From NCBI GenBank assembly GCA_964016885.1, contig OZ024747.1, positions 48,484,001 through 48,548,000 of the forward strand: 64,000 nucleotides of DNA, given 5' to 3'. Every line of letters begins with the position of its first letter. The first letter of the stretch is position 1. The notes below the pieces were generated by a model. That model ran no database searches. It saw only the letters and a program-made list of their open reading frames with translations, and had not been told where the DNA came from. This DNA comes from Eledone cirrhosa (taxonomy: Eukaryota). Positions 251 to 45,080 of the stretch are shown piece after piece. Made by a program: the position numbers and the translations under genes.

Positions 251-304
<54 letters not shown>
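251..304. repeat. (AAT)n microsatellite at 3' end of Tx1-like copy 1
   Basis: Pure AAT run directly abutting the element end (minus strand ...AATAAAGAAATC-ATTATT). Confidence 0.95.
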
Positions 305-306
<2 letters not shown>

Positions 307-565
307 TTTCTTTATTAACCACAAGGGTTTACATAAAGTAGACATTAAGGACAGTGCAGGACAATGCAGGACGGTACAAATGGGCATTTCTGCGTGTAAA
401 AAACAAAAACAGAGGATGTAACAAAAATAACAATGAAAATAACAATGAAAAATTCCCCAATAGGGGGGAGACCTCGGAGGGACATTTGTGGAGAAAGCCC
501 AGTAAAAAGCCACAATGACCCTGACCACCAAGGCAAGTGCCCTCTCCCAGTTTTCCACCTTTAAT

Positions 566-3500: not shown

Positions 3501-3985
3501 CACCCTCCACCCCTATCCGCTAATCCCACACAGTCCCAGCGTGCATCTAAGATCCCGTTCCAGTCGCCCACTAACACTAAAGAGCGGGACGTTCCAAGAA
3601 ACGTCTCCAGACGCCGGAAGAAATCAGGCCGCCCTGCTCCTGTCGGGGCATAGACGGCCACTAGCCTGAAAGCTTGCCCGTCTCCGCTGGTCACGTCCAG
3701 CACCACCAGCTTACCCTCTGGGTCCAGGAAGATGGCCCGTATGGCGAGATCCAAACCTCTCCGAAAAAGCACAGCAACTCCTCCACCGGATCCAGGACGG
3801 CTGGGAGATGCGTACACATCGTAGCCGCCGAAGATCGGTGCGAAGGCCCGTGCTTCGGAGATTCTGGTCTCGCTGATGGCCACTACATCTATGTTTAGTG
3901 ACCTGAGGTCGTTGAGCAGGTGACCCTGCTTCCATGACGACCCCAAGCCACGCGCATTTATGCTGCCTATTCTGAGTGAGGTCAT
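566..3985 (-). pseudogene. Tx1-like ORF2 (APE endonuclease + RT + C-terminal Cys motif) split by a TGA near 1289
   Basis: APE motifs SINARG, SETR, VYAP, GDWN, YLDR, TDH; RT motifs PGLDG, RPITLLN, LDQSKAFD, VRQGCPLS, YADD; GTCAACTGA here versus GTCAAGCGA in copy 2; frame continues in ORF 566..1219 (CPRC...HALVQC). Confidence 0.9.
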
Positions 3986-4020
3986 GTTTAAAATAGAGTG
4001 GAAAAGATGGGAAAGACCAC

Positions 4021-6120
4021 TTACCGTACTTTTGGTAGAGGAGGGATGGTTTTTACATCCCTTTTCACTTGATCGTCTGGTGAAGGGACCGTTGAATCGT
4101 CCCTTCGGCTGGTCGTCGGCTCTTCTAAGAGAATGTTTGAGTATACTCTTCGATTGATGGTTCCTCCTAGGTCCCTGAAATCACCAACTGCGTTGGGGAA
4201 TTTCGTTTTAATGTTTGTGTATTGTTTCTGTGCTATTTTTAGCAGTCTTATGTTAGTTGGCGTTTTGATTGGTGCTGGTATTATGTAGTCCTGTTGTGAA
4301 ATCTCTGTGTGTTCAATTATGTAAGTCATTAGTTTCTTGTTGTGTGTATTTATTGCCGTGCATTTGTTTTTCTGGGGGTGGGGTGTGGTTCTGCTATTTT
4401 CTTGTCGTTGTTGCTGGGTGTGTGTGTTTTGTTGTTGTGTTTGCGATGTTGGTGCTTGTGGTGGTGGTGTTGAAGGTGTTGTTGGCGGTGGGGTTGTCGC
4501 CGGTGGTGATGGTGGTGCTAGTGTGGGTGGTGATGGTGTTGGTGTTGTTGCTGCTGTGGGTCTCTTTGCAGTAGACTTTACCCTTTTCTCATTTCTTTCC
4601 TCCCTTTTCAAAGGCGACGATGCGCTGCTTCTGCGTTTGTGCCTTCTTACGACCTTTTGCCATCCCTCTTCCACCTCACACTCCATGTCTGATTCTGTGA
4701 GGTCGGGGAGGGGTACCAGCTCCACTCTTTCACTTGTTGTTGGTGATGTTTGCACTGGAGTCTCTGTTGCAGCTGCATTTGGTATTGCTGTTGTTGTTGT
4801 TAATATTTCCACTGCTGCTGCTGTTTTTGATTTCCGTGGAGTGGGTATGGGTGCCACGGGCCTATCGTTCCTGGTTGCCGCTTGTCCTGTTGCTGGTAGC
4901 CGTGGAGCCGGATTCGGAAGGAGGGGGGTTTTCTCCTTTCTCAGGGTCTTCTCGTTGCAGAAGGCCCTGAGGTGAGTCTTCGATCCACAGCGAAAGCATT
5001 TCGGGCGTTTGCCCTCAACACTTATGGGCAGTTGAGTGCCGTTATCGAAGTCTATCACATCCGGGATAGCTTCGATGCACTCCTGGTTGGTTTGGATTAG
5101 CATCTCAATGGAGGAGCCGACCCAATCTTCTCTTACTTTTTTCTGTACTTGCAGTACAGTTGTTTTGTCCTCGATTCCGACGAGGACAGACGCGGCCAGC
5201 CAAGAAGGGGTCATTCCGGGGGGGACGTGGGTCAGTTTGACCCTCACAATTTTTTGCCCGCAGTAGGAGGGCACTAACACCATTTCCTCGCTCCTTAGGG
5301 TCACTACTGATTGGGCCTTTGCCTCCTGGGGTGTGGCAAAAAGTACGTCTACGGTGGCATATTTTTTGCCTCGGGTGATGTGCGTTTTCCGCTGCCACAC
5401 AGACCCCAAGGCTTTTTGTATTTGGGCCTCTGTGCCTCTTTCCACCCTACGGGATTTTGTACTTACTGTACGGTACGTGACCGTACAGTGCTCTTGGGTT
5501 TCGAAAAATTTTTCCGCTGCCTTGCAGATTGCTCGGTGTCCATTCTTTGTCACCATCTTCTTCGCTTCCTCTAATTCCTCATTTGTTATGAGGATTGTTT
5601 CCAAGTTTTTCGCAATACCTGCAAATGAGATTGGTTTTTCTCTGCTGCTGCTGTTGTTGTTGTCGTCAGAGCTGCTGGTACTTTTGTTGTTGCTGCAGGT
5701 ACTACGACTACTGCCTCCGCCGCTGTTGCTGTGGTTGTTGTTGGTGTTGCTGCTGCTAATGCTGTTGTTGTTTATGCTGCTGGTGATGCTGTTGCGGCTG
5801 CTACTGTTGTTTTCATTGTCACTGTTGCTGTTGCTATTACGGCTGCTACTGCTATTATTCCTGACGTCAGACGAATGAACTGGGTTCTCGTATTTCCCGC
5901 ACACCTGTTTCGTCGCTGTCGTCGTCGTCGTGGAGAAACCTTGCACGCTTTGCACGAGACTTTTCTTTTCTTTCGTCACTTGCGAAAGAGAAGGGAGGGA
6001 GAGAGACACATTTAAAGAAGGGAGGGAGAGAGACAATCTTCTCTCTGCTGTAGTGATGATTGAGGAAGAAGAAGACGGAATGAGTGGGAGTGACGTATGA
6101 AATTTCTTTTTCGTAGCCAT
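4021..6120 (-). CDS. Tx1-like ORF1p (699 aa): N/S-rich N-terminus, probable RRM-like region, CCHC zinc knuckle, P/T-rich region
   Basis: Open 699-aa ORF upstream of ORF2; knuckle CFRCGSKTHLRAFC; basic motif WQKVVRRHKRR. Confidence 0.85.
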   Translation of the reverse strand: MATKKKFHTSLPLIPSSSSSIITTAERRLSLSLPSLNVSLSLPSLSQVTKEKKSLVQSVQGFSTTTTTATKQVCGKYENPVHSSDVRNNSSSSRNSNSNSDNENNSSSRNSITSSINNNSISSSNTNNNHSNSGGGSSRSTCSNNKSTSSSDDNNNSSSREKPISFAGIAKNLETILITNEELEEAKKMVTKNGHRAICKAAEKFFETQEHCTVTYRTVSTKSRRVERGTEAQIQKALGSVWQRKTHITRGKKYATVDVLFATPQEAKAQSVVTLRSEEMVLVPSYCGQKIVRVKLTHVPPGMTPSWLAASVLVGIEDKTTVLQVQKKVREDWVGSSIEMLIQTNQECIEAIPDVIDFDNGTQLPISVEGKRPKCFRCGSKTHLRAFCNEKTLRKEKTPLLPNPAPRLPATGQAATRNDRPVAPIPTPRKSKTAAAVEILTTTTAIPNAAATETPVQTSPTTSERVELVPLPDLTESDMECEVEEGWQKVVRRHKRRSSASSPLKREERNEKRVKSTAKRPTAATTPTPSPPTLAPPSPPATTPPPTTPSTPPPQAPTSQTQQQNTHTQQQRQENSRTTPHPQKNKCTAINTHNKKLMTYIIEHTEISQQDYIIPAPIKTPTNIRLLKIAQKQYTNIKTKFPNAVGDFRDLGGTINRRVYSNILLEEPTTSRRDDSTVPSPDDQVKRDVKTIPPLPKVR

Positions 6121-6355
6121 GTTGTTTTTTGTTTAAAATGAATATTGGGTACAAAACCCCAATAACTGGTTATTTAACCCCGAAGGGCCAAATAACGGAC
6201 AGAAAGACCCCTCTCACGAGGAGGAGGGTGTCTTTATCAACAATTTGGTTCAAGTTTTAAACAATTTACAATTGTTTTAACAGTTAAAAATTACTATACC
6301 TTACAGAGCCGAGCCTCCGTCAACCATGGCATTCAATAATAATAATAATAATAAT

Positions 6356-7706
6356 GACACTGAAGAAAGATACAATTATTTGGTGACACTGAAGAAGGAT
6401 TCAAGTATTTGGGTATTCTGAAGGCTGATGACATCAAGAACAAAAAAAATGAAGGAATTGATAAGATCTGAATACATTCGGAGAGTAAGGAGGGTATTAA
6501 AGTCACATCTGAACAGTAGGAATGCCATAAGTGCAGTAAATTCCCGAGCTGTGTCTATTATTAGGTACAGTGCGGGAATTCTGAGATGGAATGTTGCTGA
6601 ACAAAAAGAAATGGATAGGAAGACTAGGAAGCTATTGACTATCTACAACATGTTCCACAAGAGGAGTGATGTCGATAGACTCAACTTAAGGAGATCTGAA
6701 GGTGGAATAGGTCTTATCAGCATAGAGGACTGTGTTCAGATGGAGAAAAACAACCTACACAAATACGTGACCGATAGTAAGGAGCCAATGCTCAGAATTG
6801 TACTGAAGGAGAGGACAATAGACCAGGGGATGTCCAAGGAGGAAATAACAACGAGGAGAAAGAGCAACCTTCATGAAAAATCCCTTCTTAGTACCTTCTT
6901 TGAGAAAACGGAATTCAGAGATCCACAGACATGGAACTGGTTGAGAAGAGGAGACCTTAAAAAGGCTACAGAAGGAATGCTAATGGCTGCGCAAGAGCAG
7001 GCCCTCAAAACGAAATGGCTGAAACACCATATTTACAAGGAGGAGGCTAGCCCACTGTGCAGGATCTGTGGAGAGAGAGAGGAGACTGTGGCTCACATTG
7101 TATCCGAGTGTAAACACCTAGCCCAAACTCACTATGAAGGCTGAAGACATGATGTGATGGGCAGGGTGATCCACTGGCACCTATGCAAAGTAAACAATTT
7201 ACCACATTCTAAGAAGTGGTATGAGCATAAGCCAGAGTCGGTGATAGAAAACGATCAGCTGAAGGTGCTGTGGGATTTTAGGATACAGATGGATAAGAAA
7301 CTGGAACACAATAGACCTGACCTGGTGGTTTTGGACAAGGAAAAAAGATCGTGCCTGATTGTGGATGTGGCCTGCCCATTCGATACGAGAGTGCAAGAGA
7401 AGGAGAGGGAGAAAATTAACCGATACCAGGACTTAAAGTGGGAGGTAAAAAGGATTTGGAAATGCCATGAAGTCAAAGTGGTCCCGATTGTCATAGGTGC
7501 ATTAGGTACTATCTCAAAAGGTTTCCAAGGATGGTTAAAGAAAATTGGCCCCGCCCCGCTTTTTGGAACGCTTCAAAAGGCATGCTTGCTGGGAACAGCA
7601 AGAACCCTCCGATACGTTCTGAATATCTGAGGCTGCAGGTAGTGGCTTGATATTCATTTCAACAAACTTTCCATTTAAATAACATCAATGACTGAGACTC
7701 AAAGAA
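6356..7706 (+). mobile_element. 5'-truncated Dong/R4-type RLE non-LTR retrotransposon, copy 1
   Basis: ORFs 6428..7144 and 7154..7630: post-RT region, CCHC (CRICGEREETVAHIVSEC), RH-D motif, RLE core RPDLVV..D..KINRY; internal TGA at a W codon; (AAT)n both sides. Confidence 0.9.
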
Positions 7707-7748
7707 CAATAATAATAATAATAACAATAATGTATTTAATATAAAAAT

Positions 7749-7837
7749 GACTTTTACAGGACAAGAACTGTTTCATTCGAAGGAAATCATCAGGAAAGCC
7801 CTGATGATTTCCTTCAAATGAAACAGCTATAGAAGCC
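7749..7837. ncRNA. Head-to-head pair of degenerate type I hammerhead motifs (Penelope-like pLTR remnant)
   Basis: Minus 7749-7800: GGCTTTC CTGATGA TTTCCTTCGAAT GAAA CAG TTCTTGTC CTG TA AAAGTC. Plus 7801-7837: CTGATGA TTTCCTTCAAAT GAAA CAGCTA TA GAAGCC. Stem II closing pair is U-U in both. Confidence 0.55.
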
Positions 7838-7930
7838 ATTTCTATATTTAAAATTGATACTCTACTATGTATTGAGTACCTTACTTACTGTGGTTACCCC
7901 CGACTGAACCCGGGATACACCCCCACCCCC

Positions 7931-8404: not shown

Positions 8405-9484
8405 AATAGAACTGGTATAACTAATATTACACTAATATTACACTTCAGTCTTCTAATAGAACTAGTATAACTAATACTACTACACTTCAGTCTTCTAATA
8501 GAACTGGTATAACTAATACTACACTTCAGTCTTCTAATAGAACTGGTGTAACTAATACTACATTTCAGTCTTCTAATAGAACTAGTATAATTAATACTAC
8601 TACACTTCAGTCTTCTAATAGAACTGGTGTAACTAATACTACACTTCAGTCTTCTAATAGAACTGGTGTAACTAATACTACACTTCAGTCTTCTAATAGA
8701 ACTTGTATAACTAATACTACACTTCAGTCTTCTAATAGAACTGGTATAACTAATACTACATTTCAGTCTTCTAATAGAACTGGTGTAACTAATACTACAC
8801 TTCAGTCTTCTAATAGAACTGGTATAACTAATACTACACTTCAGTCTTCTAATAGAACTGGTGTAACTAATACTACACTTCAGTCTTCTAATAGAACTGG
8901 TATAACTAATACTACATTTCAGTCTTCTAATAGAACTGGTGTAACTAATACTACACTTCAGTCTTCTAATAGAACTGGTATAACTAATACTACACTTCAG
9001 TCTTCTAATAGAACTGGTGTAACTAATACTACACTTCAGTCTTCTAATAGAACTGGTGTAACTAATACTACACTTCAGTCTTCTAATAGAACTGGTGTAA
9101 CTAATACTACACTTCAGTCTTCTAATAGAACTGGTGTAACTAATACTACACTTCAGTCTTCTAATAGAACTGGTATAACTAATACTACATTTCAGTCTTC
9201 TAATAGAACTGGTGTAACTAATACTACATTTCAGTCTTCTCATAGAACTGGTGTAACTAATACTACACTTCAGTCTTCTAATAGAACTTGTATAACTAAT
9301 ACTACACTTCAGTCTTCTAATAGAACTTGTATAACTAATACTACATTTCAGTCTTCTAATAGAACTGGTGTAACTAATACTACACTTCAGTCTTCTAATA
9401 GAACTTGTATAATTAATACTACATTTCAGTCTTCTAATAGAACTGGTATAACTAATACTACACACAGTCTTCTAATAGAACTCG
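8405..9484. repeat. 39-bp minisatellite, about 27 units
   Basis: Unit CTTCAGTCTTCTAATAGAACTGGT(G/A)TAACTAATACTACA; matches the 13-aa periodicity CSISYTSSIRRLK of ORF 8395..9465. Confidence 0.97.
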
Positions 9485-9954
9485 TATAATCAATATTCTG
9501 CTAGAAGCTGTCAATTATTTATCAGAGTTGATTTCGTAGTGCTTGTTGATGAGAATCGATTTCTTCGTACTTAACTGCAACATAAGACTATAGTTTACCA
9601 TTGTCTACACTGTTCGGCTCTCACGTACACCGTCTTACATCTTGGATTCATAATGTATTGTCAGTTACACAGAATATATACTATCAAATCAAACCCTGTA
9701 TATATGTGAGCATGTCTCTGTGTGTGTATTCTGTGTGTGTCTGTGTGTCTGTGTGTCTGTGTGTCTGTGTGAAGGATAATTCGACACCATTGTAGAGATT
9801 AACGGTTTATTGAGGTTAAAGGCTGATCCAGTAACCTGTTACTCTGAAGTTTCTCTTGTGAACTACCCTCTGTGCTACAGTTTGACTAAGGAACCTGGAA
9901 CACACCAGGTAGACTTCCCAGTAATAGGATACTGAATAAACCTTAATAAAATGT

Positions 9955-10652: not shown

Positions 10653-10830
10653 ACCCCTTGATAAGTTCAGCTAGGTCCCTGCTGTTCTAATATTACTGGT
10701 TTAGTTCGGATCTAGCTGTCGAGACGGCCGGAGCTCAGCCGTCGGGGTCATGACTCTTTTCCTATTACCCCTCTGCTACCCTAAGTATCGAGTATTCTGG
10801 TGCGTTATGGTCCACCTGGTTCCTTGCCAC
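10653..10830 (+). mobile_element. Penelope-like terminal remnant with variant hammerhead fold (10653-10748)
   Basis: ACCCC TTGATAA [CAGCTAGGTCC...GGATCTAGCTG] TC GAGA CGGC CGGAGCTCA GCCG TC GGGGT; downstream sequence homologous to the reverse complement of about 31305-31440. Confidence 0.5.
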
Positions 10831-10840
10831 ACTTTCTTTG

Positions 10841-10912
<72 letters not shown>

Positions 10913-13223: not shown

Positions 13224-13446
<223 letters not shown>

Positions 13447-14218
13447 CGTTGTTCTATGTAGAATTACACATACACGCACACACCCAAACGTTATATTCTA
13501 CTGCTATATATGATGATTGCTTTCACCTGCTTCCACTACACTTTGATTTAGCGACCTGTATGTTCTGTGAACCACACAGATAAATTGCATTTGAACGCCA
13601 CCTATAACACTTGTTGCCATACTGTGATGGATACATGGAGTTCCACGATATGATCGCTTCATCTGGCTCCCGCTATATCTGGCTCCCGCTATATCTGACT
13701 CTGCCTACATCATTCACTTTGGTTGATACTATTTTTAAACTGTCACCTCTGGGATCCTCTACTGTCTACAACCATATTTACTTTATTTATTTGCATTGCT
13801 TATATAATGTGTTATCTTTTATGTTTCATTTTTATTTTTATTTTTATATACCTCCTATTTTTTATTCTAATGTTTATTTTTATTTTTATTATTTGTTATT
13901 ATTTTTTTTGTATTTCCTTATATGATCATCACTTTATTGTTATCTTTATTTTATCTTTACTTCTAGACTCTACCCTTTATGTTTTATCTCTTATCTTTAA
14001 TTTTCTTATCTTTTATTTTTCCTTATCTTTAATTATCTTTCCTTATTTTTCCTTAACTTTAATTATTGTAACTGATTTTGGTCTTATATGTATCGGTTTC
14101 TAGCAGTGACGCGTCGTCCAAGCACGCCACTCTTCTTAGTCCTCTTTGCTACATATGGATCGTTCTTCTGATATAGGCCAGTAGAGTTTATACTATTGAT
14201 CTAATTCCTCTTTATAAC

Positions 14219-14263
14219 GCTCTGATGAGTCCTGCAATTATGCAAGGACGAAACACTGTCAGC
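14219..14263 (+). ncRNA. Type I hammerhead ribozyme, canonical core
   Basis: GCT CTGATGA GTCC TGCA ATTA TGCA A GGAC GAAA C ACT GTC AGC; GUC site at 14258-14260; AATAAA follows immediately. Confidence 0.85.
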
Positions 14264-14561
14264 AAATAAAGATTAATTGATGATGTAAGCGCTTTTTGTT
14301 TTTGTTCCATATATATATATATATATATATATACGATATGTATACGATATATATATTAATTTCACGGCCAGGCTGTTCCAAATAATTGGAACACTCATCA
14401 TCAGAGCAGACGAAGGTCCAGCAACAACAGTAATATAACTAACTTTCTTTGGTATTTGGATCATATTTATTTGGTTTTGGGATCATAACTTAAATCTTCT
14501 TACATAAAATTATGATGGAACATTTTTAGATAAATAAAAAACACTTTAAAATAAACATTTT

Positions 14562-14818
14562 TATGTATACCAACGGAATGATGGTAAGCTACAAGGAGAC
14601 AAGCAAAGAAGAAACAGAGAGGAAAAAGTGTGTGCTATGTTTTTTACCCAGAGACGGATGTAGTAGCATGCTGCCACAGTGCTTGCTCGCTTCAGGGGCG
14701 GGCGAATAACGTGGCAGCATGCTACTACGTCCGTCAAAAAACAGCACACACTTTTTCCTCTCTGTTTTTTTCTTTGCTTGTTGCCTTGTCGCTTACCATC
14801 ATTCCGTTGGTATACATA
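14562..14818. repeat. Fold-back inverted duplication, arms about 110 bp
   Basis: 14562-14677 is the diverged reverse complement of 14711-14818 (TATGTATACCAACGGAATGATGGTAAGC / GCTTACCATCATTCCGTTGGTATACATA). Confidence 0.92.
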
Positions 14819-14831
14819 TATTACGCAATTT

Positions 14832-14889
14832 ACACCTGATGAGGTCATAGGATTCTTACGCAACCTGGCCACTGAAATGTGCATGGTGT
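14832..14889 (+). ncRNA. Degenerate type I hammerhead (cleavage triplet reads AUG, probably inactive)
   Basis: ACAC CTGATGA GGTCATAGG...CCTGGCCACT GAAA TGTGCA TG GTGT; shares CCTGATGAGGTCATAG with the 15277 motif. Confidence 0.6.
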
Positions 14890-15094
14890 TTACAGTAATA
14901 AAAATAATAAGGAAATTCAACATATTTGGCCTCCTGTCATTTCACTTTATAATACATTTACTCTGTTTCCGCACCACCAACATGATTCAACATTGAAGAT
15001 GGATGAATTGCATAACGTCGAATGCTTTTCTCATATTACGTCATGATTAGCATTATGACCAATTCTACCCAGTGGTAAACCCCCAAATTTAAAC

Positions 15095-15155
<61 letters not shown>

Positions 15156-15276
15156 CAAGAAAGTAAGTGTTGGTAAAATCCAGTACTTCAGTATGCGGAT
15201 AGGGACCACTCAACGAAGATATAAGTTCCGGAGTTATAATAGTGACGAAACATAAGTCAATTGCATGAACTGACTA

Positions 15277-15332
15277 ACTGCCTGATGAGGTCATAGCCAT
15301 TCAATGGCTATCATCGAAATATATATAGCAGT
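15277..15332 (+). ncRNA. Minimal type I hammerhead with palindromic stem III, enclosed by a perfect 31-bp inverted repeat
   Basis: ACTGC CTGATGA GGTC ATAGCCATT C AATGGCTAT CATC GAAA TATATA TA GCAGT then AAATAAA; inverted repeats at 15241-15271 and 15348-15378. Confidence 0.82.
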
Positions 15333-16139
15333 AAATAAAGGATTATGAGTTCATGCAATTGACTTATGTTTCGTCACTGTATATATATAATGTCAATACA
15401 CTGCCAATAATGAGTGGTCAGTTCTAGCGTCAGTCCCTATGGAAAATGACTGCAGGCTGTATATATGTGCCTGTATGTGTGTGTATATATATATAAGGTT
15501 ATATATATATATATATATTTTAAGGTTTAAACCTGTCTACGGAACAGGTTTGATTTTGAAATTTAAATTTGTCCAAGCACTACGGCCATTGCCAATACAA
15601 TTTGTTTTTGTTGATTTATGATGTATTATCTTAAGTCATGATAGGCAAACTGTAATATTATTATTAGTATATTTCTATCTAGCTAACTTGGTCATTTACA
15701 ATACAAACATAAATATGAGGATATTTGTGTTTATCAAATATATTGATTTATGTTAACCTATATTACACGGCTCAGAAATACTCTTTCTTCGAGCTATTTC
15801 ATTGTAAATGATCGCCTGAGATTTGAACTCATTATTATTGATTTTATATATATATATATATATACACACACATTTATAATAAATTGAAGTGAAAACCAAC
15901 TAGTGCGTGTGTTTTCACAGTTGGTTGGTTGGGTGGTTGGTTGGTTAGTTGATTCAATAAACGGATGGTTGTCTATATATTGTCAAAGCTCTTTCGTCAC
16001 ACATTCTGTGAGTCCCTCAGTTACTAGGTTTTCATTTTGTGTCTCTCCATTGTTCTATCCTACACCATCTTTTTTCTGTGTTGTGTGCTTAGTTTGCGCA
16101 TGCATTTCATCCGGGGGTGGGGCTATTCATTTATGTGTT

Positions 16140-18577: not shown

Positions 18578-18634
<57 letters not shown>

Positions 18635-18640
18635 GTTGTT

Positions 18641-20871
18641 ATTCCTTGAATCTCAGTCATTGATGTTGGTTAACTGGAAAGTCCGTTGGATTGAATATCA
18701 AGCCACTACCTGCAGCCTCAGATATTCAGGACGTATCGGAGGGTTCTTGCTGTTCCAAGCAAGCATGCCTTTTGAAGCGTTCCAAAAAGCGTGAAGGGGC
18801 CGATTTTCTTTAACCATCCCTGGAAACTTTTGGAGATAGTCCCCAGTGCGCCTATGACAATCGGGATCACTTTGACTTCATGGCAGTTCCAGATCCTTTT
18901 CACCTCCCACTTTAGGTCCTGGTATCGGTTAATTTTCTCCCTCGCCTTCTCTTGCACTCTCGTGTCGAACGGGCAGGCCACATCCACAATCAGACACGAT
19001 CTTTTTTCTTTGTCCACAACCACCAGGTCAGGTCTATTGTGTTCCAGTTTTTTGTCCGTCTGTATCCTAAAATCCCACAGCACCTTCACCTGATTGTTCT
19101 CCATCACCGCCTCTGGCCTATGCTCATACCATTTCTCAGAATGTGGTAAATTGTTTACTTTGCACAGGTGCCAGTGGATCACCCTGCCCATCACATCGTG
19201 TCTCCAGCCCTTATAGTGGGTCTGGGCTAGGTGTTTACACTCGGACACAATGTGAGCCACAGTCTCCTCTCTCTCTCCACAGATCCTGCACAGTGGGCTA
19301 GCCTCCTCCTTGTAGATATGGTGCTTCAACCACTTCGTTTTGAGGGCCTGCTCCTGCGCAGCCATTAGCATTTCTTCTGTAGCCTTTTTGAGGTCTCCTC
19401 TTCTCAACCAGTTCCATGTCTGTGGATCTCTAAATTCAGTTTTCTCAAAGAAGGTACTATGAAGGGATTTTCCCTTAAGGCTGCTCTTCCTCCTTGATGT
19501 TATTTCCTCCTTGGACATCCCCTGGCCTACTGTCCCCTCCTTCAGTACAGCTCTGAGCATTGGCTCCTTACTATAGGTCACGTATTTGTATAGGTTGTTT
19601 TTCTCCATCTGAACACAGTCCTCTATGCTGATAAGACCTCTTCCACCCTCAGATCTCCTTAGGTAGAGTCTATCAACATCACTCCTCTTGTGGAACATGT
19701 TGTAGATAGTCAATAGCTTCCTAGTCTTCCTATCCATTTCTTTTTGTTCAGCAACATTCCATCTCAGAATTCCCGCACTGTACCTAATAATAGACACAGC
19801 TCGGGAATTTACTGCGCTTATGGCATTTCTGCTGTTCAGATGTGACTTCAATACGCTCCTTACTCTCCGAATGTATTCAGTTCTTAACAATTCCTTCATT
19901 TTTTTGTTCTTTATGCCATCAGCCTCCAGAACGCCCAAATACTTGTATTCTTCCTCAGAGTCAATTTCCTTTATCATCTCACCTGTTGGTATCTGGATCC
20001 CGTTACTTCTGCTCAACCTACCCCTCTTCATCACAATGACTCCACATTTACCAATACCAAACTGCATACATATATCACTGCTGAAAATACGGACAGTGTC
20101 AACAAGCACATCCAACTCCTTCTCACTTTTCCCGAAGAGCTTAAGATCGTCCATGAAGAGGAGGTGACTGATGGTAAGCTCTCCCCTTCCCAACTTGTAT
20201 CCTGCTCTCACTTTTCGCAGCATAATGGTCAAGGGCATCAGGGCAAGGACAAACAACAGAGGGGACAGGCTATCTCCCTGGAAGATACCTCTCTTGATCT
20301 TCACGCTTCCCAAGGATACTCCAGTTGATGTCAACTCTGTCTCCCAGGACCCCATACTCCTGCCTAGCAACTGTCTGATGTTATCTGCCACCTTGAAGAT
20401 CTCCAGGCTTTTGGTGATCCAGGAATGGGGCACCATGTCAAATGCCTTTCTGTAGTCTATCCATCCCATGGCAAGATCAGTGTGTCTCCTCCTGCAATTC
20501 CCCATTACCATCTTATCAATAAGTAACTGGTCCTTTGTACCACGTGACTTCTTTCGGCATCCTTTCTGTTCGTCCGGTAACAAGTTGTTTGTGTGGAGGT
20601 GATGGTAGATTTCCTCAGACACAATGCTCGTCAACAGTTTCCACATTACGGACAGACATGTGATAGGTCTATAGTTGGTAACATCATTACCCTTGATTCG
20701 GTCTTTCATTATCAGAACTGTGGTACCTTTTGTCAACCACTCTGGCACCTCACCCGACACCAAGCAGTCATTGAACATGGCCGTCAGCTTCGGGTGGAGG
20801 GATGTTAAATGTTTAATCCAATACCCCTGCACACCATCTGGGCCTGGTGATTTCCAGTTGGTTAGTTGGTT
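18641..20871 (-). mobile_element. 5'-truncated Dong/R4-type element, copy 2, with uninterrupted RT-CCHC-RLE
   Basis: KSPGPDG, YRPITCL, IDYRKAFD, GIFQGDSLSP, LFMDD, YKYLG, CRICG..H...C, RHD, RPDLVV; (ATT)n both sides. Confidence 0.93.
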
Positions 20872-20898
20872 ATTATTATTATTATTATTGAATGCCAT
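18718..20898 (-). CDS. Chimeric 726-aa RT-RLE ORF; ATG comes from the antisense strand of the Tx1 5' end and reads through (AAT)n
   Basis: MAF-NNNNNNN-QLTNWKSPGPDG..., no stop until YVLNI. Expression unknown. Confidence 0.5.
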   Translation of the reverse strand: MAFNNNNNNNQLTNWKSPGPDGVQGYWIKHLTSLHPKLTAMFNDCLVSGEVPEWLTKGTTVLIMKDRIKGNDVTNYRPITCLSVMWKLLTSIVSEEIYHHLHTNNLLPDEQKGCRKKSRGTKDQLLIDKMVMGNCRRRHTDLAMGWIDYRKAFDMVPHSWITKSLEIFKVADNIRQLLGRSMGSWETELTSTGVSLGSVKIKRGIFQGDSLSPLLFVLALMPLTIMLRKVRAGYKLGRGELTISHLLFMDDLKLFGKSEKELDVLVDTVRIFSSDICMQFGIGKCGVIVMKRGRLSRSNGIQIPTGEMIKEIDSEEEYKYLGVLEADGIKNKKMKELLRTEYIRRVRSVLKSHLNSRNAISAVNSRAVSIIRYSAGILRWNVAEQKEMDRKTRKLLTIYNMFHKRSDVDRLYLRRSEGGRGLISIEDCVQMEKNNLYKYVTYSKEPMLRAVLKEGTVGQGMSKEEITSRRKSSLKGKSLHSTFFEKTEFRDPQTWNWLRRGDLKKATEEMLMAAQEQALKTKWLKHHIYKEEASPLCRICGEREETVAHIVSECKHLAQTHYKGWRHDVMGRVIHWHLCKVNNLPHSEKWYEHRPEAVMENNQVKVLWDFRIQTDKKLEHNRPDLVVVDKEKRSCLIVDVACPFDTRVQEKAREKINRYQDLKWEVKRIWNCHEVKVIPIVIGALGTISKSFQGWLKKIGPFTLFGTLQKACLLGTARTLRYVLNI

Positions 20899-21104
20899 GG
20901 TTGACGGAGGCTCGGCTCTGTAAGGTATAGTAATTTTTAACCGTTAAAACAATTGTAAATTGTTTAAAACTTGAACCAAATTGTTGATAAAGACACCCTC
21001 CTCCTCGTGAGAGGGGTCTTTCTGTCCGTTATTTGGCCCTTCGGGGTTAAATAACCAGTTATTGGGGTTTTGTACCCAAAATTTCATTTTAAACAAAAAA
21101 CAAC

Positions 21105-23206
21105 ATGGCTACGAAAAAGAAATTTCATACGTCACTCCCACTCATTCCGTCTTCTTCTTCCTCAATCATCACTACAGCAGAGAGAAGATTGTCTCTCTCC
21201 CTCCCTTCTTTAAATGTGTCTCTCTCCCTCCCTTCTCTTTCGCAAGTGACGAAAGAAAAGAAAAGTCTCGTGCAAAGCGTGCAAGGTTTCTCCACGACGA
21301 CGACGACAGCGACGAAACAGGTGTGCGGGAAATACGAAAACCCAGTTCATTCGTCTGACGTCAGGAATAATAGCAGTAGCAGCCGTAATAACAACAGCAA
21401 CAGTGACAATGAAAACAACAGTAGCAGCCGCAACAGCATCACCAGCAGCATAAACAACAACAGCATTAGCAGCAGCAACACCAACAACAACCACAGCAAC
21501 AGCGGCGGAGGCAGTAGTCGTAGTACCTGCAGCAACAACAAAAGTACCAGCAGCTCTGACGACAACAACAACAGCAGCAGCAGAGAAAAACCAATCTCAT
21601 TTGCAGGTATTGCGAAAAACTTGGAAACAATCCTCATAACAAATGAGGAATTAGAGGAAGCGAAGAAGATGGTGACAAAGAATGGACACCGAGCAATCTG
21701 CAAGGCAGCGAAAAATTTTTTCGAAACCCAAGAGCACTGTACGGTCACGTACCGTACAGTAAGTACAAAATCCCGTAGGGTGGAAAGAGCCACAGAGGCC
21801 CAAATACAAAAAGCCTTGGGGTCTGTGTGGCAGAGGAAAACGCACATCACCCGAGGCAAAAAATACGCCACCGTAGACGTACTTTTTGCCACACCCAGGA
21901 GGCAAAGGCCCAATCAGTAGTGACCCTAAGGAGCGAGGAAATGGTGTTGGTGCCCTCCTACTGCGGGCAAAAAATTGTGAGGGTCAAACTGACCCACGTC
22001 CCCCCCGGAATGACCTCTTCTTGGCTGGCCGCGTCTGTCCTCGTCGGAATCGAGGACAAAACAACTGTACTGCAAGTACAGAAAAAAGTAAGAGAAGATT
22101 GGGTCGGCTCCTCCATTGAGATGCTAATCCAAACCAACCAGGAGTGCATCGAAGCTATCCCGGATGTGATAGACTTCGATAACGGCACTCAACTGCCCAT
22201 AAGTGTTGAGGGCAAACGCCCGAAATGCTTTCGCTGTGGATCGAAGACTCACCTCAGGGCCTTCTGCAACGAGAAGACCCTGAGAAAGGAGAAAACCCCC
22301 CTCCTTCCGAATCCGGCTCCACGGCTACCAGCAACAGGACAAGCGGCAACCAGGAACGATAGGTCCGTGGCACCCATACCCACTCCACGGAAATCAAAGA
22401 CAGCAGCAGCAGTGGAAATATTAACAACAACAACAGCAATACCAAATGCAGCTGCAACAGAGACTCCAGTGCAAACATCACCAACAACAACAAGTGAAAG
22501 AGTGGAGCTGGTACCCCTCCCCGACCTTACAGAATCAGACATGGAGTGTGAGGTGGGAGAGGGATGGCAAAAGGTCGCAAGAAGGCACAAACGCAGAAGC
22601 AGCGCATCGTCGCCTTTGAAAAGGGAGGAAAGAAATGAGAAAAGGGTAAAGTCTACTGCAAAGAGACCCACAGCAGCAACAACACCAACACCATCACCAC
22701 CCACACTAGCGCCACCATCACCACCGGCGACAACCCCACCGCCAACAACACCTTCAACACCACCACCACAAGCACCAACATCGCAAACACAACAACAAAA
22801 CACACACACCCAGCAACAACGACAAGAAAATAGCAGAACCACACCCCACCCCCAGAAAAACAAATGCACGGCAATAAATACACACAACAAGAAACTAATG
22901 ACTTACATAATTGAACACACAGACATTTCACAACAGGACTACATAATACCAGCACCAATCAAAACGCCAACTAACATAAGACTGCTAAAAATAGCACAGA
23001 AACAATACACAAATATCAAAACGAAATTCCCCAACGCAGTTGGTGATTTCAGGGACCTAGGAGGAACCATCAATCGAAGAGTATACTCAGACATTCTCTT
23101 AGAAGAGCCGACGACCAGCCGAAGGGACGATTCAACGGTCCCTTCACCAGACGATCAAGTGAAAAGGGATGTAAAAACCATCCCCCCTCTACCAAAAGTA
23201 CGGTAA
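21105..23206 (+). pseudogene. Tx1-like ORF1 with 1-nt frameshift near 21895
   Basis: ACACCCAGG here versus ACACCCCAGG in copy 1; split into ORFs 21105..21920 and 21827..23206. Confidence 0.85.
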
Positions 23207-23241
23207 GTGGTCTTTCCCATCTTTTCCACTCTATTTTAAAC

Positions 23242-26200
23242 ATGACCTCACTCAGAATAGGCAGCATAAATGCGCGTGGCTTGGGGTCGTCATGGAAGCA
23301 GGGTCACCTGCTCAACGACCTCAGGTCACTAAACATAGATGTAGTGGCCATCAGCGAGACCAGAATCTCCGAAGCACGGGCCTTCGCACCGATCTTCGGC
23401 GGCTTTGATGTGTACGCATCTCCCAGCCGTCCTGGATCCGGTGGAGGAGTTGCTGTGCTTTTTCGGAGAGGTTTGGATCTCGCCATACGGGCCATCTTCC
23501 TGGACCCAGAGGGTAAGCTGTTGGTGCTGGACGTGACCAGCGGAGACGGGCAAGCTTTCAGGCTAGTGGCCGTCTATGCCCCGACAGGAGCAGGGCGGCC
23601 TGATTTCTACCGGCGTCTGGAGACCTTTCTTGGAACGTCCTGCTCTTTAGTGTTAGTGGGCGACTGGAACGGGATCTTAGATGCACGCTGGGACTGTGTG
23701 GGATTAGCGGATAGGGGTGGAGGGTGCAAGAGCCTCACCAACCTGCTCAGGCGTTTTGAACTGTCTGACAGGTACCGATTGGATTTCCCGAATGTGCCAA
23801 TGTGGACTTGGACAAACCGCATAGGGTCATCCAGATCATATCTAGATAGAGTATTTTGTAGGGAAATAGATAGGTCTAGCATAGGCTGTCCACAATTCAA
23901 GATAGTCAGCTACACGGACCACAAATTCGTGATCTTTGTGCTTGACTTAGATAGGCTTCATAGACGAGGACCCGGCTACTGGAAGCTAAACGCGTCCTTA
24001 CCAGCGCGCAAGGCCTACAGAGACCGGATTAGCGAACTAGTTAAGCGGGCGTTGACGGGGGCCATCGTCAACAACAAGTGGTGGTTTGCTCTGAAAAGAG
24101 CGATTAGAATAGAATCGATTAGGTTTAGTAAGGCTTTAGCAATAGAGAAAAATAGAGCAGAGGGAGAACTAGTTAGAAAATTAGACGAGGCGCTTAGCAA
24201 AGGCATTGCGACCGACGTGCTTGCGGCGAAATTGGCCCTTGACCAATTCTTCAATGCAAAGCACGAAGGCTGCGTTGTCAGAGCAAGGGTGCGTGCTCTC
24301 AGACACGAGGGGACGAAAGCCGTGCAATGGGCCCGAGTGGCGGAGGCGCGTCGTGGCAACAAAGCCACGATCCGGTCTTTGGTGGACCACGACGGGCGCA
24401 TGCTACTCGATCCCGGGCAAATGTGTGGAGCTTTTCAGCGACACTTCGCTCAGCTGTTCGGGGGCAGCGGGGGGCCGGGTAGAGGGATGGACTTTAGTGT
24501 CTACCTCGACGGACTGCCGCGGCTCTCGGCCACTGAGGCGAAGTGTTGCGAAAAGCCGATAACAGCCGCTGAAGTAAGGGAGGCAATGACTGGCTGCACA
24601 AGGGGTAAATCGCCTGGTTTGGATGGTCTGCCCTATGAACTTTACGTACAGATGCCAGACTTGTTCGGAGGCCTCTTGGCGGACGTCTACTGCAACTGGC
24701 AACAGAACGGGAGAATTCCCAGTTCTGTGAGCCGAGGAGCGGTGGCACTGCTGAGAAAGGATCCGAACAAGGGGGATAACATAGAAAATTTCCGGCCCAT
24801 AACTCTGCTAAACACAGAGTTTAAGATTTTGGCCAAGGTGCTAGCAAAGAGGTTGGCGCTTGTCGTTGGTGGTCTGGTGGGAGAGGCGCAGACATGCGCC
24901 ATTCCCGACAGATCCATCCACGACAACCTCCACCTCATGCGATACATCGTAGAGAGGGTAGCTAGGGAACCTGGCACGGGTGGGTCCTTGATCAATTTAG
25001 ATCAGTCGAAAGCTTTCGATAGGGTCGACCATCGTTACCTAGCGGCAGTCCTGAGGGCGGCTGGCTTTGGGCCCGTCTTCAGAGGCTGGATCGCTGCCAT
25101 GCACAGCGACATCTGCTCTGTGGTGAGAGTGAACGGTCACCTGTCGGAACCGTTCAACATCATGCGCTCGGTCCGCCAAGGATGTCCCCTCTCGTCCCTC
25201 TTGTACGTATTGACGCTCGAGCCATTACTGCACAAACTGGAGACGTTGAGGGGAGTCCCGCGCGAACTAGGATGCGGAAGATCCGTGTCAGCATATGCGG
25301 ACGATGTCACCGTAGTGGTGTCGAACGCCAAACACATCGAGGCGATCGGCACTACACTAAGAGAATACGAAGCGGTGACAGGAGCAATGATCAACCAGGA
25401 AAAGTCAGTGGGCCTGCAGCTCGGCACCTGGAGAGGCAGGTCCATGCCGTCCAACAGCGTCGTCGGGCGCTGGACGGACGGACCGGTTAAATTGCTAGGG
25501 GTCTGGTTCGGTCCGGACCTCCAGACGGACAAAAACTGGGACGAGGTGACGAGCAGGGTGGCTTCTCTCACCCAGAAATGGGCGGAGAGGAAGCTATCCC
25601 TGAAAGGTCGAGCGGAGGTGGCTAACGCGTACATCGCGTCTGTCATCTGCTACCGCCTAACCGTCGTACCTTGTCCTAAGCCTCGCCTGACTGCGCTGGA
25701 GCGTTTGCTCTTTCGCTTTTTGTGGAAGGGACGTGCTCCGATGGTCAGGCGGTCCATCTGTTGTCAACACCCGCTACGTGGAGGGCTGGGCATGCCGTGG
25801 CTGATGATGCGCAGGCACGCGCTCAGGCTACGACATCTCCACCTCTTCCTCGACGGTGATCAGGTGTGGTCGCCGTTTGCTAGACGCGTTTTTCCCCAGC
25901 TCGTTTCCTTGACGGAGCTGCAGTCCTGGGTCAAGCGAAGACCGAGAGGGAGCGCCTGGAGACTGGAATGTCTTCAGGCGCTCACAGCCCTCGACCAATC
26001 GGGCAATGTGATCGGTGGAAACTCCACCTCGGCGTTCTATAGAGGATTAGTGGAGGGGAAGAGCGACGACGTACTTGGGGAAACTCTAGGCGTCGACGAA
26101 AATCAACTAGCCAATCTCTTCGGAAGAACTTTCGGGCCAGGGCCTATGGACAACTTCCAGAAATCTCTGGCCTGGCAGTGCTACCGAGGAGCCTTGCCAG

Positions 26201-26661
26201 TTCGGGATAAACTCTACAGGCATGGAGGTGCCGTCAGCCGGGCATGTCCGAGATGCGCGCAGGGCGACGAAACCGTCCTGCACGCACTCGTCCAGTGTCC
26301 GAAAATTGCTGACTTGTGGGTTTATGTCGAACACCTGCTGTCGCGTTTAGGACGGATCCAGCTATCATCTGAGTCTATCGTGAGGATTGCCCCGCCCTCC
26401 TCCTTTAGCCGGGAAGGGCAGGCAGTTTTTATCTGTCTGGTGGCCATGGCGAAAGAGATAGTATGGTGGACACGTTTGAAAGGGCTGAAGACGAGCACTT
26501 ACCTCTTCGGTGATGCTCTGATTGACTTTTTCAAATTTCATTTGAAAAGGAAAATCAGAGTAGAGAGGGAAGTGCTCTCTTCCCAGCATTTTGTTGAAAG
26601 ATGGGTGAGAGAAGCAAGAATGGCCCGAGTGAATGGGCCGACTCTGAGTATATATCTGTAA
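23242..26661 (+). CDS. Intact Tx1-like ORF2p (1139 aa): APE endonuclease, reverse transcriptase, Cys/His motif
   Basis: All APE and RT motifs in one frame, YADD catalytic motif, CPRCAQGDETVLHALVQC. Confidence 0.95.
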   Translation: MTSLRIGSINARGLGSSWKQGHLLNDLRSLNIDVVAISETRISEARAFAPIFGGFDVYASPSRPGSGGGVAVLFRRGLDLAIRAIFLDPEGKLLVLDVTSGDGQAFRLVAVYAPTGAGRPDFYRRLETFLGTSCSLVLVGDWNGILDARWDCVGLADRGGGCKSLTNLLRRFELSDRYRLDFPNVPMWTWTNRIGSSRSYLDRVFCREIDRSSIGCPQFKIVSYTDHKFVIFVLDLDRLHRRGPGYWKLNASLPARKAYRDRISELVKRALTGAIVNNKWWFALKRAIRIESIRFSKALAIEKNRAEGELVRKLDEALSKGIATDVLAAKLALDQFFNAKHEGCVVRARVRALRHEGTKAVQWARVAEARRGNKATIRSLVDHDGRMLLDPGQMCGAFQRHFAQLFGGSGGPGRGMDFSVYLDGLPRLSATEAKCCEKPITAAEVREAMTGCTRGKSPGLDGLPYELYVQMPDLFGGLLADVYCNWQQNGRIPSSVSRGAVALLRKDPNKGDNIENFRPITLLNTEFKILAKVLAKRLALVVGGLVGEAQTCAIPDRSIHDNLHLMRYIVERVAREPGTGGSLINLDQSKAFDRVDHRYLAAVLRAAGFGPVFRGWIAAMHSDICSVVRVNGHLSEPFNIMRSVRQGCPLSSLLYVLTLEPLLHKLETLRGVPRELGCGRSVSAYADDVTVVVSNAKHIEAIGTTLREYEAVTGAMINQEKSVGLQLGTWRGRSMPSNSVVGRWTDGPVKLLGVWFGPDLQTDKNWDEVTSRVASLTQKWAERKLSLKGRAEVANAYIASVICYRLTVVPCPKPRLTALERLLFRFLWKGRAPMVRRSICCQHPLRGGLGMPWLMMRRHALRLRHLHLFLDGDQVWSPFARRVFPQLVSLTELQSWVKRRPRGSAWRLECLQALTALDQSGNVIGGNSTSAFYRGLVEGKSDDVLGETLGVDENQLANLFGRTFGPGPMDNFQKSLAWQCYRGALPVRDKLYRHGGAVSRACPRCAQGDETVLHALVQCPKIADLWVYVEHLLSRLGRIQLSSESIVRIAPPSSFSREGQAVFICLVAMAKEIVWWTRLKGLKTSTYLFGDALIDFFKFHLKRKIRVEREVLSSQHFVERWVREARMARVNGPTLSIYL

Positions 26662-26921
26662 ACTAAAGGTGGAAAACTGGGAGAGGGCACTTGCCTTGGT
26701 GGTCAGGGTCATTGTGGCTTTTTACTGGGCTTTCTCCACAAATGTCCCTCCGAAGTCTCCCCCCTATTGGGGAATTTTTCATTGTTATTTTCATTGTTAT
26801 TTTTGTTACATCCTCTGTTTTTGTTTTTTTACACGCAGAAATGCCCATTTGTACCGTCCTGCATTGTCCTGCACTGTCCTTAATGTCTACTTTATGTAAA
26901 CCCTTGTGGTTAATAAAGAAA

Positions 26922-26986
<65 letters not shown>

Positions 26987-28224
26987 GTTCTTTGAGTCTC
27001 AGTCATTGATGTTATTTAAATGGAAACTTTGTTTAAATCAATATCAAGCCGCTACCTGCAGCCTCAGCTATTCAGGACGTATAGGAGGGTTCTTGCTGTT
27101 CCCAGCAACCATGCCTTTTGAAGAGTTCCAAAAAGCGGGGCTGGACTAATCTTCTTTAACCATCCTCGGAAACTCTTTGAGATAGTACCTAGTGCGCCTC
27201 TGTCAATCAGGACGACCTTGATCTCATGACAGTTCCAAATCCTTTTTTAATCCCACTTTAAATCCTTGTATCGATTAATTTTCTCCTTTTTTCCTTGCAC
27301 TCTCGTTTCAAATGGGAAGGCTACATCTACAATCAGACACGATCTTTTTTCCTTGTCCAAAACCACCAGGTCAGGCCTATTGTGTTCTAATTTCTTGTCC
27401 GTCTGTATCCTAAAATCCCACAGCACTTTCACCTGATCGTTTTCTATCACTGATTTTGGCTTATGCTCATACCATTTCTCAGAATGTGGTAAATTGTTTA
27501 GTTTGCATAGATACCAGTGGATCACCCTGCCCATCACATCATGTCTCTAGCCTTTATAGTGAGTCTGGGCTAGGTGTTTACACTCGGATACAATGTGAGC
27601 CACAGTCTCCTCTCTCTCTCCACTGATCCCACACAGTGAGCTAGCCTCCTCCTTGTCAATATGGTGTTTCACCCAATTCGTTTTGAGGGCCTGCTCTTGC
27701 GCAGCCATTAGCATTCCTTCTGTAGCTTTTTTAAGGTCTCCTATTTTTAACCAGTTCTATATCTGTGGATCTCTGAATTCCGTTTTCTTAAAGAAGGTAC
27801 TATGAAGGGATTTTTCATGAAGGCTGCTCTTCCTCCTTATTGTTATTTCCTCCTTGGACATCTCCTGGTCTATTGTCTTCTCCTTCAGTACAATTTTGAG
27901 CATTGGCTCCTTACTGGCAGACACATATTTGTGCAGGTTGTTTTTCTCCATCTGAACACAGTCCTCTATGCTGATAAGACCTCTTCCACCCTCAGATCTC
28001 CTTAAGTAGAGTCTATCAACTTCACTCCTCTTGTGGAACATGTTGTAGATAGTCAATAGCTTACTAGTCTTCCTATCCATTTCTTTTTGTTCAGCAACAT
28101 TCCATCTCAGAATTCCTGCACTGTACCTAATAATAGACACAGCTCGGGAATTCACTGCACTTATGACATTCCTAATATTTAGATGTGATTTTAGTATGTT
28201 CCTTACTCTCCTTATGTATTCAGT
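26987..28224 (-). mobile_element. Older 5'-truncated Dong/R4-type copy 3
   Basis: ORFs 27247..27537 and 27757..28155 homologous to other copies with stops and frameshifts; same 3' UTR; tail-to-tail with Tx1 copy 2 across (ATT)n at 26924-26986. Confidence 0.9.
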
Positions 28225-31223: not shown

Positions 31224-31306
<83 letters not shown>

Positions 31307-31449
31307 ACGAAGGAGTTGTGGTAAGGAACCAGATGGACCATAACGCACCAGAGTACACAATACTTAGGGTAGTAGAGTGGGTAATAGGAAAAGGTATGTC
31401 CTTGACGGCAGAGCTCAAGCCGTTTCGACGACTATTTCTGGACTGTATA

Positions 31450-37104: not shown

Positions 37105-37210
37105 TCTTCTTCTTCTTCTTCTTCTTCTTCTTCTTCTTCTTCTTCTTCTTCTTCTTCTTCTTCTTCTTCTTCTTCTTCTTCTTCTTCTTCTTCTTCTTCT
37201 TCTTCTTCTT
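37105..37210. repeat. (TTC)n tract, about 35 units, forming the 3' tail of Dong copy 4
   Basis: Continuous with the element end GAGACTCAAAGAA on the minus strand. Confidence 0.92.
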
Positions 37211-42035: not shown

Positions 42036-42539
42036 TAGTTTTAAAATGATAATAATAACAAAGGTAAGTTATTTTACAAAATTCTTTCATTGTAGGGTTG
42101 ATCATATTGATATATTGACTGATCTATAGCAGTTAGAGAACTGTATACTATCAGGCATAATATATAGGTTTGATCATACCGTCTTCTTCGGAAACAATGA
42201 AGTTAGAATCTTTATTGGTAGTATTATAGTTTAGATATAAACGGGGTAGATATAAGAAGAGACATACCATACAAATATATATTCTAGATTATATAATTGT
42301 ATCGTATGTCTCTTCTTAAATCTACCCTGTTTATAATACTACCAATAAAGATTCTAACTTCATTGTTTCCGAAGAAGACGGTATGATCAACCTATGTATT
42401 ATGTCTGATAGTATACAGTTCTCTAACTGTTATAGATCAGTCAATATATCAATATGATCAACCCTCTGAAACGATCGTAAAACAATGAAATAATTTTGTA
42501 AAATAACTTGCCTTTGTTATTATTATCATTTTAAAACTA
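42036..42539. repeat. About 500-bp fold-back palindrome
   Basis: 42036-42275 is the reverse complement of 42297-42539 with small indels. Confidence 0.93.
42359..42489 (+). ncRNA. Variant type I hammerhead (CCGAAGA core, about 90-nt stem II, palindromic stem III)
   Basis: TTCATTGTTT CCGAAGA [AGA...long hairpin...TCT] GAAA CGATCG TA AAACAATGAA; 10-bp stem I; GUA site at 42477-42479. Confidence 0.7.
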
Positions 42540-44764: not shown

Positions 44765-45080
44765 GTTGGACCTTCGTCGGTTTCGATGAAGAGTGTTCCA
44801 GTTATTTGAAAAAAAAAACAAAAAAAAAAAACGGTGGAGTCTACACATGAAATTAACGTGCATTCCACAGACACGTGTACCCATAACGTAGTTCCCAGGG
44901 AGATTCAGCGAGCTAGAAGGTAACAAGACTGTCCCTTTTGTATTACAGTTACAACTCATTTTTGCCAACTGAACAAGACATAAAGTGTCTTGTTCAAGTA
45001 GAAAAGACGCTGCTGGGAATCGAACTGACGACCTTACCATTGTGAATGGAACAACCTAATCACTAAGCCACGTGCCTTCA
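44765..45080 (-). mobile_element. tRNA-derived SINE, second family
   Basis: Minus GGCACGTGGCTTAGTGATTAGG (A box), GTTCGATTCC (B box), TTGAACAAGACACTTT; tail motif also at 14380-14422 and 47235-47275. Confidence 0.7.

Follow-up and report, generated by a model that had tools for sequence, protein, structure and literature searches.

Hammerhead-bearing insertions at AT-rich sites, probably 5'-truncated ends of Penelope-like elements, in a repeat-rich animal DNA region

The 64-kb stretch of DNA analysed here (the window) is repeat-rich animal DNA containing LINEs and long microsatellites. Two inverted copies of a two-ORF LINE, 98.9% identical, are located at 251–6354 and 20870–26977, with an intact-looking frame of 1204 aa at 23047–26661, and the identity between them suggests that this LINE family is young. 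A protein search with a LINE gave distant invertebrate matches only, the best at 70% identity and nearly all unnamed. A second LINE is present in several copies (6384–7730, 18579–20867, 26925–28224 and 37143–39423) and a tandem array of ~39-bp units at 8405–9495 is open in two opposite frames for ~355 codons. The region under study holds the ends of three hammerhead-bearing families, here called A, C and D, and consists of the following features.

14100–14310, + strand: 3' end of a third family, reaching (TA)n on the right, left bound unseen; it carries hammerhead A, which has its core at 14222, GUC at 14258–14260, a stem I of 3 bp and AATAAA at +5
14430–14561, no strand: very abundant AT-rich repeat, unrelated, forming the left flank of insertion C; bounds approximate
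14562–14693, - strand: insertion C, inverted arm, which in element coordinates falls 18 nt short of the hammerhead core
14695–15081, + strand: insertion C, direct copy, which runs from the right fold-back arm through the hammerhead and AATAAA into ~200 nt of 3' sequence
14832–14889, + strand: hammerhead C, decayed in this copy, with G at position 17 and a G.U, not G-C, at the base of stem II
14897–14902, + strand: AATAAA after hammerhead C
15095–15151, + strand: G(TA)28 on the left of insertion D, a candidate target-site duplication that would have lengthened afterwards as a microsatellite (a duplication within a microsatellite being unprovable)
15152–15271, - strand: insertion D, inverted 5'-truncated copy, 120 nt, made up of the left inverted repeat arm (15241–15271) and an 89-nt 3' extension (15152–15240) ending at (TA)n
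15267–15271, no strand: GAACT, 5-bp microhomology at the head-to-head junction, fitting both copies; the inverted arm stops at 15271 and family reads fit from 15267
15267–15378, + strand: insertion D, the 112-nt direct copy, 5'-truncated, which stops at the common short end of the family
15277–15332, + strand: hammerhead D, type I minimal; stem I has 5 bp, the long stem II has G-C at its base and stem III is palindromic
15334–15339, + strand: AATAAA, 7 nt past the predicted cleavage site of hammerhead D
15348–15378, + strand: right inverted repeat arm, the last 31 nt of the direct copy, where both copies overlap
15379–15389, + strand: G(TA)5 on the right of insertion D, counterpart of G(TA)28 in the candidate duplication

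Both strands of the window were scanned with a minimal hammerhead descriptor permitting any base at position 17, and two passes were found, with cores at 14836 and 15282, and no others. Both are type I minimal hammerheads followed by AATAAA, in agreement with the preliminary description, which had proposed two related hammerhead cassettes with poly(A) signals. In 100 shuffled windows the mean number of passes was 0.03 and a self-complementary stem III appeared in none. Stem I is ACTGC/GCAGT (5 bp) in motif D and ACAC/GTGT in motif C, a difference of three compensatory pairs, and stem III, ATATATAT and ATGTGCAT in the same order, is self-complementary in each motif and also covaries, bearing out both the stem I covariation and the dimer-type palindromic stem III suggested earlier. 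Relative to the cleavage site AATAAA starts at +7 (D), +12 (C) and +5 (A), the chance of finding one within 15 nt being ~0.03 for each when calculated from the local density. An alignment of motifs C and D gave a z of 5.1, indicating related motifs, and the two cassettes belong to separate, distantly related families.

A search against Rfam covering 14100–15450 detected neither motif C nor motif D, the sole hammerhead match (15.6 bits, cut-off 48.5) being at the third hammerhead, 14181–14259. A double hammerhead exchanges stem I strands between its two units, and a C-D heterodimer was excluded from the sequence since the two stem I strands are not cross-complementary. Pattern scans of metagenome and viral contigs gave six metagenome loci and one viral locus, all seven of which were rejected as chance matches, none having a palindromic helix III or a matching stem I.

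Other hammerhead-like sequences were observed in the window. A small repeat with a hairpin followed by GAAAC...GTC, resembling the 3' half of a hammerhead, occurs in three copies (14360–14420, 44767–44820 and 47222–47275), the one at 14.4 kb being degenerate. A further family, likewise with (TA)n at its end, has two copies, at 10653–10843 (+) and 31305–31430 (-), and the 10.7-kb copy contains a hammerhead-like motif with a U3-A8 core variant (TTGATAA), a 5-bp stem I, a long stem II and a real hairpin as helix III, 100 nt before its end. At 52034–52146 (+) a hammerhead-like sequence whose stem I has 4 bp, whose stem II region measures 90 nt and whose helix III word is palindromic may be due to chance.

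In hammerhead D cleavage is predicted after AUA (15327), and the core, the three helices and the NUH are all present, helix III as a dimer only. The minimum-energy fold (-14.7 kcal/mol) sequesters the core, the active-like fold lies at -13.6 kcal/mol, and the stem III self-duplex (-3.2 kcal/mol) forms only between two molecules. Unaided self-cleavage of the D insertion, with its single motif, is unlikely; to cut it would need a second D-type copy and perhaps also the protein of the element. The ATG inside the hammerhead core is followed by a stop after 3 codons.

Of 12 public sequencing runs, four were aligned to 14100–15460 at 80% likeness, X1 and X10 (organism A), X4 (organism B) and X6 (organism C). 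The read tables comprise the best-supported entries, that is 40 of 360 differences, 15 of 84 joints, 24 of 1119 loose ends and 24 of 16,513 pieces, skipping 15084–15168, and contig depth in this analysis does not equal copy number. The X10 library is a restriction-based reduced representation in which molecules begin with CATG and end with AATT, and piles of read starts and ends at 14670, 14718, 14917, 15262 and 15355–15360 were rejected as element ends, being CATG/AATT library sites. The 16-bp word shared by motifs C and D in the preliminary description is present here but partly peculiar to this copy, 254 of the 280 X10 reads having C, not T, at 14848.

The perfect 31-bp inverted repeat reported earlier at the ends of 15241–15378 was recovered at 15241–15271 and 15348–15378, while the longest one in 300 shuffles of 14100–15460, with TA runs removed, was 16 bp (mean 11). 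Insertion D consists of two head-to-head copies of one family end joined at a 5-bp microhomology. The hammerhead part belongs to the end of a very abundant repeat, and the segment 15267–15389 is the deepest stretch of the region in X1 and X10, and one X6 contig matches it with 1 difference in 123 nt. Behind 15389, 357 X10 reads run into (TA)n (depth 391 at 15379), and 15378, next to (TA)n, is the fixed short 3' end of the family; at 15379 A is found in 390 of 391 X10 reads, so that the G seen here is site-specific. Before 15267 other sequence is found in 1220 X10 reads (1613 deep at 15301), in 21 contigs of X1 and in one of X6, and the sequences preceding the equivalent of 15267 in other copies are mutually similar. 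Because these copies share a different sequence upstream of 15267, the family is longer than the D copy, which is cut at this point.

The sequence of the inverted copy is likewise found elsewhere. The stretch 15169–15262 is present in other copies, with 128 X10 reads at 15206 from about 18 starts, 127 of them carrying the family letter G, a letter also found in 21 X1 and 42 X4 contigs, and since this stretch lies between two AATT sites at the D locus its X10 reads stem from other loci. At the AATT site 15262, 95 X10 molecules end (depth 103 beside it), and over 15169–15240 X10 depth is flat, with no step near 30–40 nt among the rows listed. In one X4 contig 15378 is connected with 15240 on the opposite strand, the shorter side measuring 59 letters, and in another 15261 and 15327 are joined on opposite strands. 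An X4 contig that runs from 15200 to 15276 on the same strand has 37 other letters in between and resembles a further insertion of the D design with a different junction. The segment 15152–15240 is thus a longer 3' end of family D, carried here by the inverted copy only, its far end at 15152 being set from the TA junction of the window only, as the alignment skips 15084–15168. The ratio of short to long ends varies by run and is unreliable: X10 reads give ~3:1, while contig depth gives 28:1 for X1 and 2:1 for X4. The repeat is 31 bp long because the two copies overlap by the 120 nt of the inverted copy minus the 89 nt of the extension.

The inverted copy can be read through for 40 codons (15151–15270, - strand). 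The tails of PLEs (Penelope-like elements) reportedly code for the initial residues of the ORF, but a search of 1.84 billion proteins with this frame, which includes the extension, matched no PLE protein. The one match, to a hypothetical tandem-repeat protein of a leafhopper, was rejected, having 10–11 identities in 23 per repeat and a score summed over seven repeats. Likeness of the long end of D to A, to C or to the ends of the 10.8-kb and 31-kb repeats was also rejected, not being above shuffles (z -1.1 to 0.5). When read in element antisense, the inverted repeat arm 15241–15262 and its mirror have the sequence GACGAAAC-ATAA-GTC, which looks like the 3' part of another hammerhead; a matching 5' half was not found nearby and the resemblance is probably due to chance.

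The fold-back that was earlier said to precede the relative of hammerhead D at 14832 is present, as is the motif. It spans 257 bp (14562–14818), and its arms, which match at 110 positions, mismatch at 13 and are gapped at 10, reach almost to a centre formed by a G.U-rich hairpin with a 3-nt loop. Two letters unlike the family majority are common to both arms, at 14591/14789 and 14592/14788, where the majority letters are found in 435 of 455 (14591), 429 of 455 (14592), 490 of 501 (14789) and 481 of 501 (14788) reads, and therefore the arms derive from one template. The direct copy is spanned by contigs of X1 (14745–14945, 14765–14941 and 14931–15081) and X4 (14793–15081), and X1 depth is ~11,000 on hammerhead C against a few hundred on the arms, this being contig depth and not copy number. 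In motif C the cleavage site of this copy is AUG, not NUH, and stem II is irregular. G at position 17 prevents hammerhead cleavage, and from its sequence hammerhead C is likely dead in this copy; at 14885, 324 of 342 X10 reads have A, giving AUA as the family majority. The inverted arm ends before the ribozyme and not at a 3' end of the family, against the unrelated AT-rich repeat, and either a stop of synthesis or a later deletion may account for this. The flanking repeat is of high depth at 14468–14559 in all four runs, with loose ends at 14497 and 14540, and no target-site duplication was seen at insertion C.

In other copies of family C the hammerhead segment is missing or replaced, as seen from the joints 14831–14971, 14839–14909 and 14563–14925 (among the 15 of 84 joints listed), the last in 58 reads from one start. 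In the third family, also an abundant one, X4 contigs cover 14100–14298 of the 3' end carrying hammerhead A, which is very deep in this run.

It is highly probable that the region holds short 5'-truncated ends of several abundant hammerhead repeats, likely Penelope-like, situated at AT-rich or (TA)n sites, and that the 138-bp unit (15241–15378) is the middle of one insertion at ~15152–15378 and not a mobile module. For insertion D an endonuclease of the element would have cut both strands inside a TA run, and from each cut end reverse transcription of the element RNA would have been primed at either of two fixed internal sites (51 and ~140 nt beyond the ribozyme cut), after which both cDNAs would have ended early and been joined by microhomology, a course of events that yields precisely the structure of D. 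Since the inverted copy holds sequence missing from the direct copy it cannot have been copied from it, and both came from element RNA. Insertion C would be an older insertion of a sister family, its near-perfect fold-back likely resulting from snap-back of the cDNA on a GC-rich hairpin at its 5' end, and the meeting of the C arms in a hairpin with a 3-nt loop is as expected of snap-back priming. The hammerheads would in both cases be cargo of the pseudo-LTR of the element.

None of the 126 non-LINE reading frames of at least 60 aa in the window matched the GIY-YIG family, and the D and C copies are in any case too short to carry an RT-GIY-YIG gene. As no such gene is linked, we infer Penelope membership from the hammerhead type, the truncation, the inversion and the one-sided extension. 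Features of PLEs found here are a type I minimal hammerhead near the 3' end, a fixed 3' end together with 5' truncation, a head-to-head inverted 5'-truncated copy (with microhomology in D and a palindromic centre in C) and a one-sided extension. For a target-site duplication, which in PLEs is variable and often hidden in microsatellites, the candidate at insertion D is G(TA)28 on the left with G(TA)5 on the right. The extension of D is 89 nt long, outside the 30–40 bp that is the usual, though not a strict, value for PLE tails. The creation of the inversion during Penelope-type integration, which had been proposed before, is supported by this comparison, the structure of D, its family ends and its microhomology agreeing with the published insertion pattern.

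For family D itself we regard it as an even call whether it is a young, very abundant Penelope-type family, either autonomous or a minimal non-autonomous derivative, with two reverse transcription start sites ~89 nt apart. It is less likely, and on balance doubtful, that family D is a short non-autonomous element which derives from a pseudo-LTR, resembles a retrozyme or SINE, depends on a Penelope-like enzyme acting in trans for its movement and has no upstream coding region. The high abundance of near-identical members would suit such an element (425 of 8636 X1 records have 99+ likeness over the whole region, and the X6 contig has its single difference in 123 nt), as would the absence of a PLE coding fragment from the 126 frames, and in 10.64898/2026.07.22.740005 non-LTR retrozymes are proposed to derive from PLE pseudo-LTRs. 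The missing ORF can however be explained by extreme 5' truncation alone, and retrozymes, according to PMC7229834, are tandem repeats with canonical hammerheads, while family D has a single minimal motif; direct tandem repeats were not found at the locus and none of the 15 joints listed, out of 84, is a head-to-tail D joint. A non-autonomous element overlaps with the preferred reading of Penelope-like ends, the insertion mechanics being the same and the difference lying only upstream.

Other fold-backs are found in the window. That at 7740–7850 has a 5-nt spacer and two arms which both begin with CCTGATGA and carry GAAAC, and from its sequence is likely a Penelope-type palindrome pivoting at a degenerate ribozyme core, and those at 13224–13343 and 42036–42539 are near-perfect (120 and 500 bp) with no hammerhead core by scans. 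The presence of these three fold-backs would fit inversions that arose after insertion, by repair or by replication fold-back in a repeat-dense, TA-rich region, as would the left end of C, which adjoins another repeat and may be a later deletion, and the divergence of the C arms. For C such an inversion is possible; as an account of the region it is improbable, the inverted copy of D carrying 89 nt of family sequence that the direct copy lacks and both outer ends of D meeting (TA)n, the short one at the fixed end of the family.

Least probable of all is the compact mobile module of the preliminary description, an IR-ribozyme-AATAAA-IR unit of 138 bp with fixed ends moving MITE-like or as hairpin RNA, for although perfect 31-bp arms enclose an intact-looking motif and the X10 library would under-sample the resulting CATG-CATG fragment, so that a small sub-family could escape the best-supported rows, both supposed left boundaries fail (in other copies the left arm is missing and the sequence ahead of 15267 differs, and a longer family sequence runs through 15241), no piece or joint listed (24 of 16,513 and 15 of 84) repeats the D junction, there is no look-alike among the metagenome and viral contigs, and the unit, with no left boundary of its own, falls in the middle of a head-to-head insertion of ~230 bases.

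The locus adds one more case of Penelope-like elements leaving hammerhead-bearing stubs in animal genomes, an ordinary observation of limited import, and cautions that perfect inverted arms on either side of a ribozyme can arise as by-products of insertion instead of marking a mobile unit. Its one use is that both alternative 3' ends of the family, ~89 nt apart, are borne by one and the same insertion. If true, this spacing would be two to three times that of the textbook tail and the arm length would equal the long copy minus 89 at every site; if confirmed genome-wide, the known range of PLE tails would become wider and many natural insertions would be at hand to test priming from two start sites and on two strands.

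The insertion pattern itself is already published, the sole odd feature being the one-sided extension of ~89 bases. In the literature searched, supplements and Arkhipova 2006 aside, where other lengths may stand, no report of PLE tails beyond 30–40 nt was found. PMC8557442 describes PLE insertions with an inverted 5'-truncated copy, a one-sided tail and a TA bias (Craig et al. 2021), and PMC3846280 interprets palindromes at head-to-head junctions as self-priming (Arkhipova et al. 2013). As in these accounts of endonuclease-bearing elements (Penelope/Poseidon, Neptune, Nematis), the copies in D and C are head-to-head with their 3' ends outward and truncated at the 5' end, and a short overlap at the junction, an extension of one end, a hammerhead near the 3' end, a microsatellite or AT-rich target and palindromic junctions are shared. 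Differences from the same insertions are the extension of ~89 nt instead of 30–40, the lack of a linked ORF and the inverted arm of C stopping short of the ribozyme.

Metazoan PLE hammerheads are, according to PMC4209133 (Cervera and De la Pena 2014), mostly single motifs of truncated copies, and the minimal ones cleave weakly and only as dimers in vitro. The motifs described here share with them a helix I of 4–5 bp, a long helix II, G10.1-C11.1, a palindromic helix III for dimers, the many single motifs and the occurrence of several families per genome. With non-LTR retrozymes as described in PMC7229834 (Cervera and De la Pena 2020) and in a preprint (Li et al. 2026) they have in common a small size, a type I hammerhead, unseen coding sequence and a high copy number, whereas retrozymes are direct tandem repeats of canonical motifs (PMC7229834) and the present case is a single motif in an inverted insertion; such retrozymes are proposed as derivatives of PLE pseudo-LTRs in 10.64898/2026.07.22.740005. 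For Octopus vulgaris the available text of PMC13282606 lists 31 recently active Penelope-like families and makes no mention of hammerheads.

The closest comparison is offered by PAc, Poseidon of Anolis carolinensis. According to PMC11167929 (Frangieh et al. 2024) the lizard PLE protein cuts and extends both strands at AT-rich sites, reverse transcription starts at two internal sites whose spacing equals the tail, and the hammerhead requires the protein and is dispensable for insertion. In PAc the start site falls 111–118 nt inside the ORF, the ribozyme cuts at +26 and the tail measures 30–40 nt, while the ends seen here lie 51 and ~140 nt past the cut. Shared with PAc are an AT-rich target and two alternative 3' ends past the hammerhead, and the cutting and extension of both target strands would yield two head-to-head cDNAs, as in the insertion described here.
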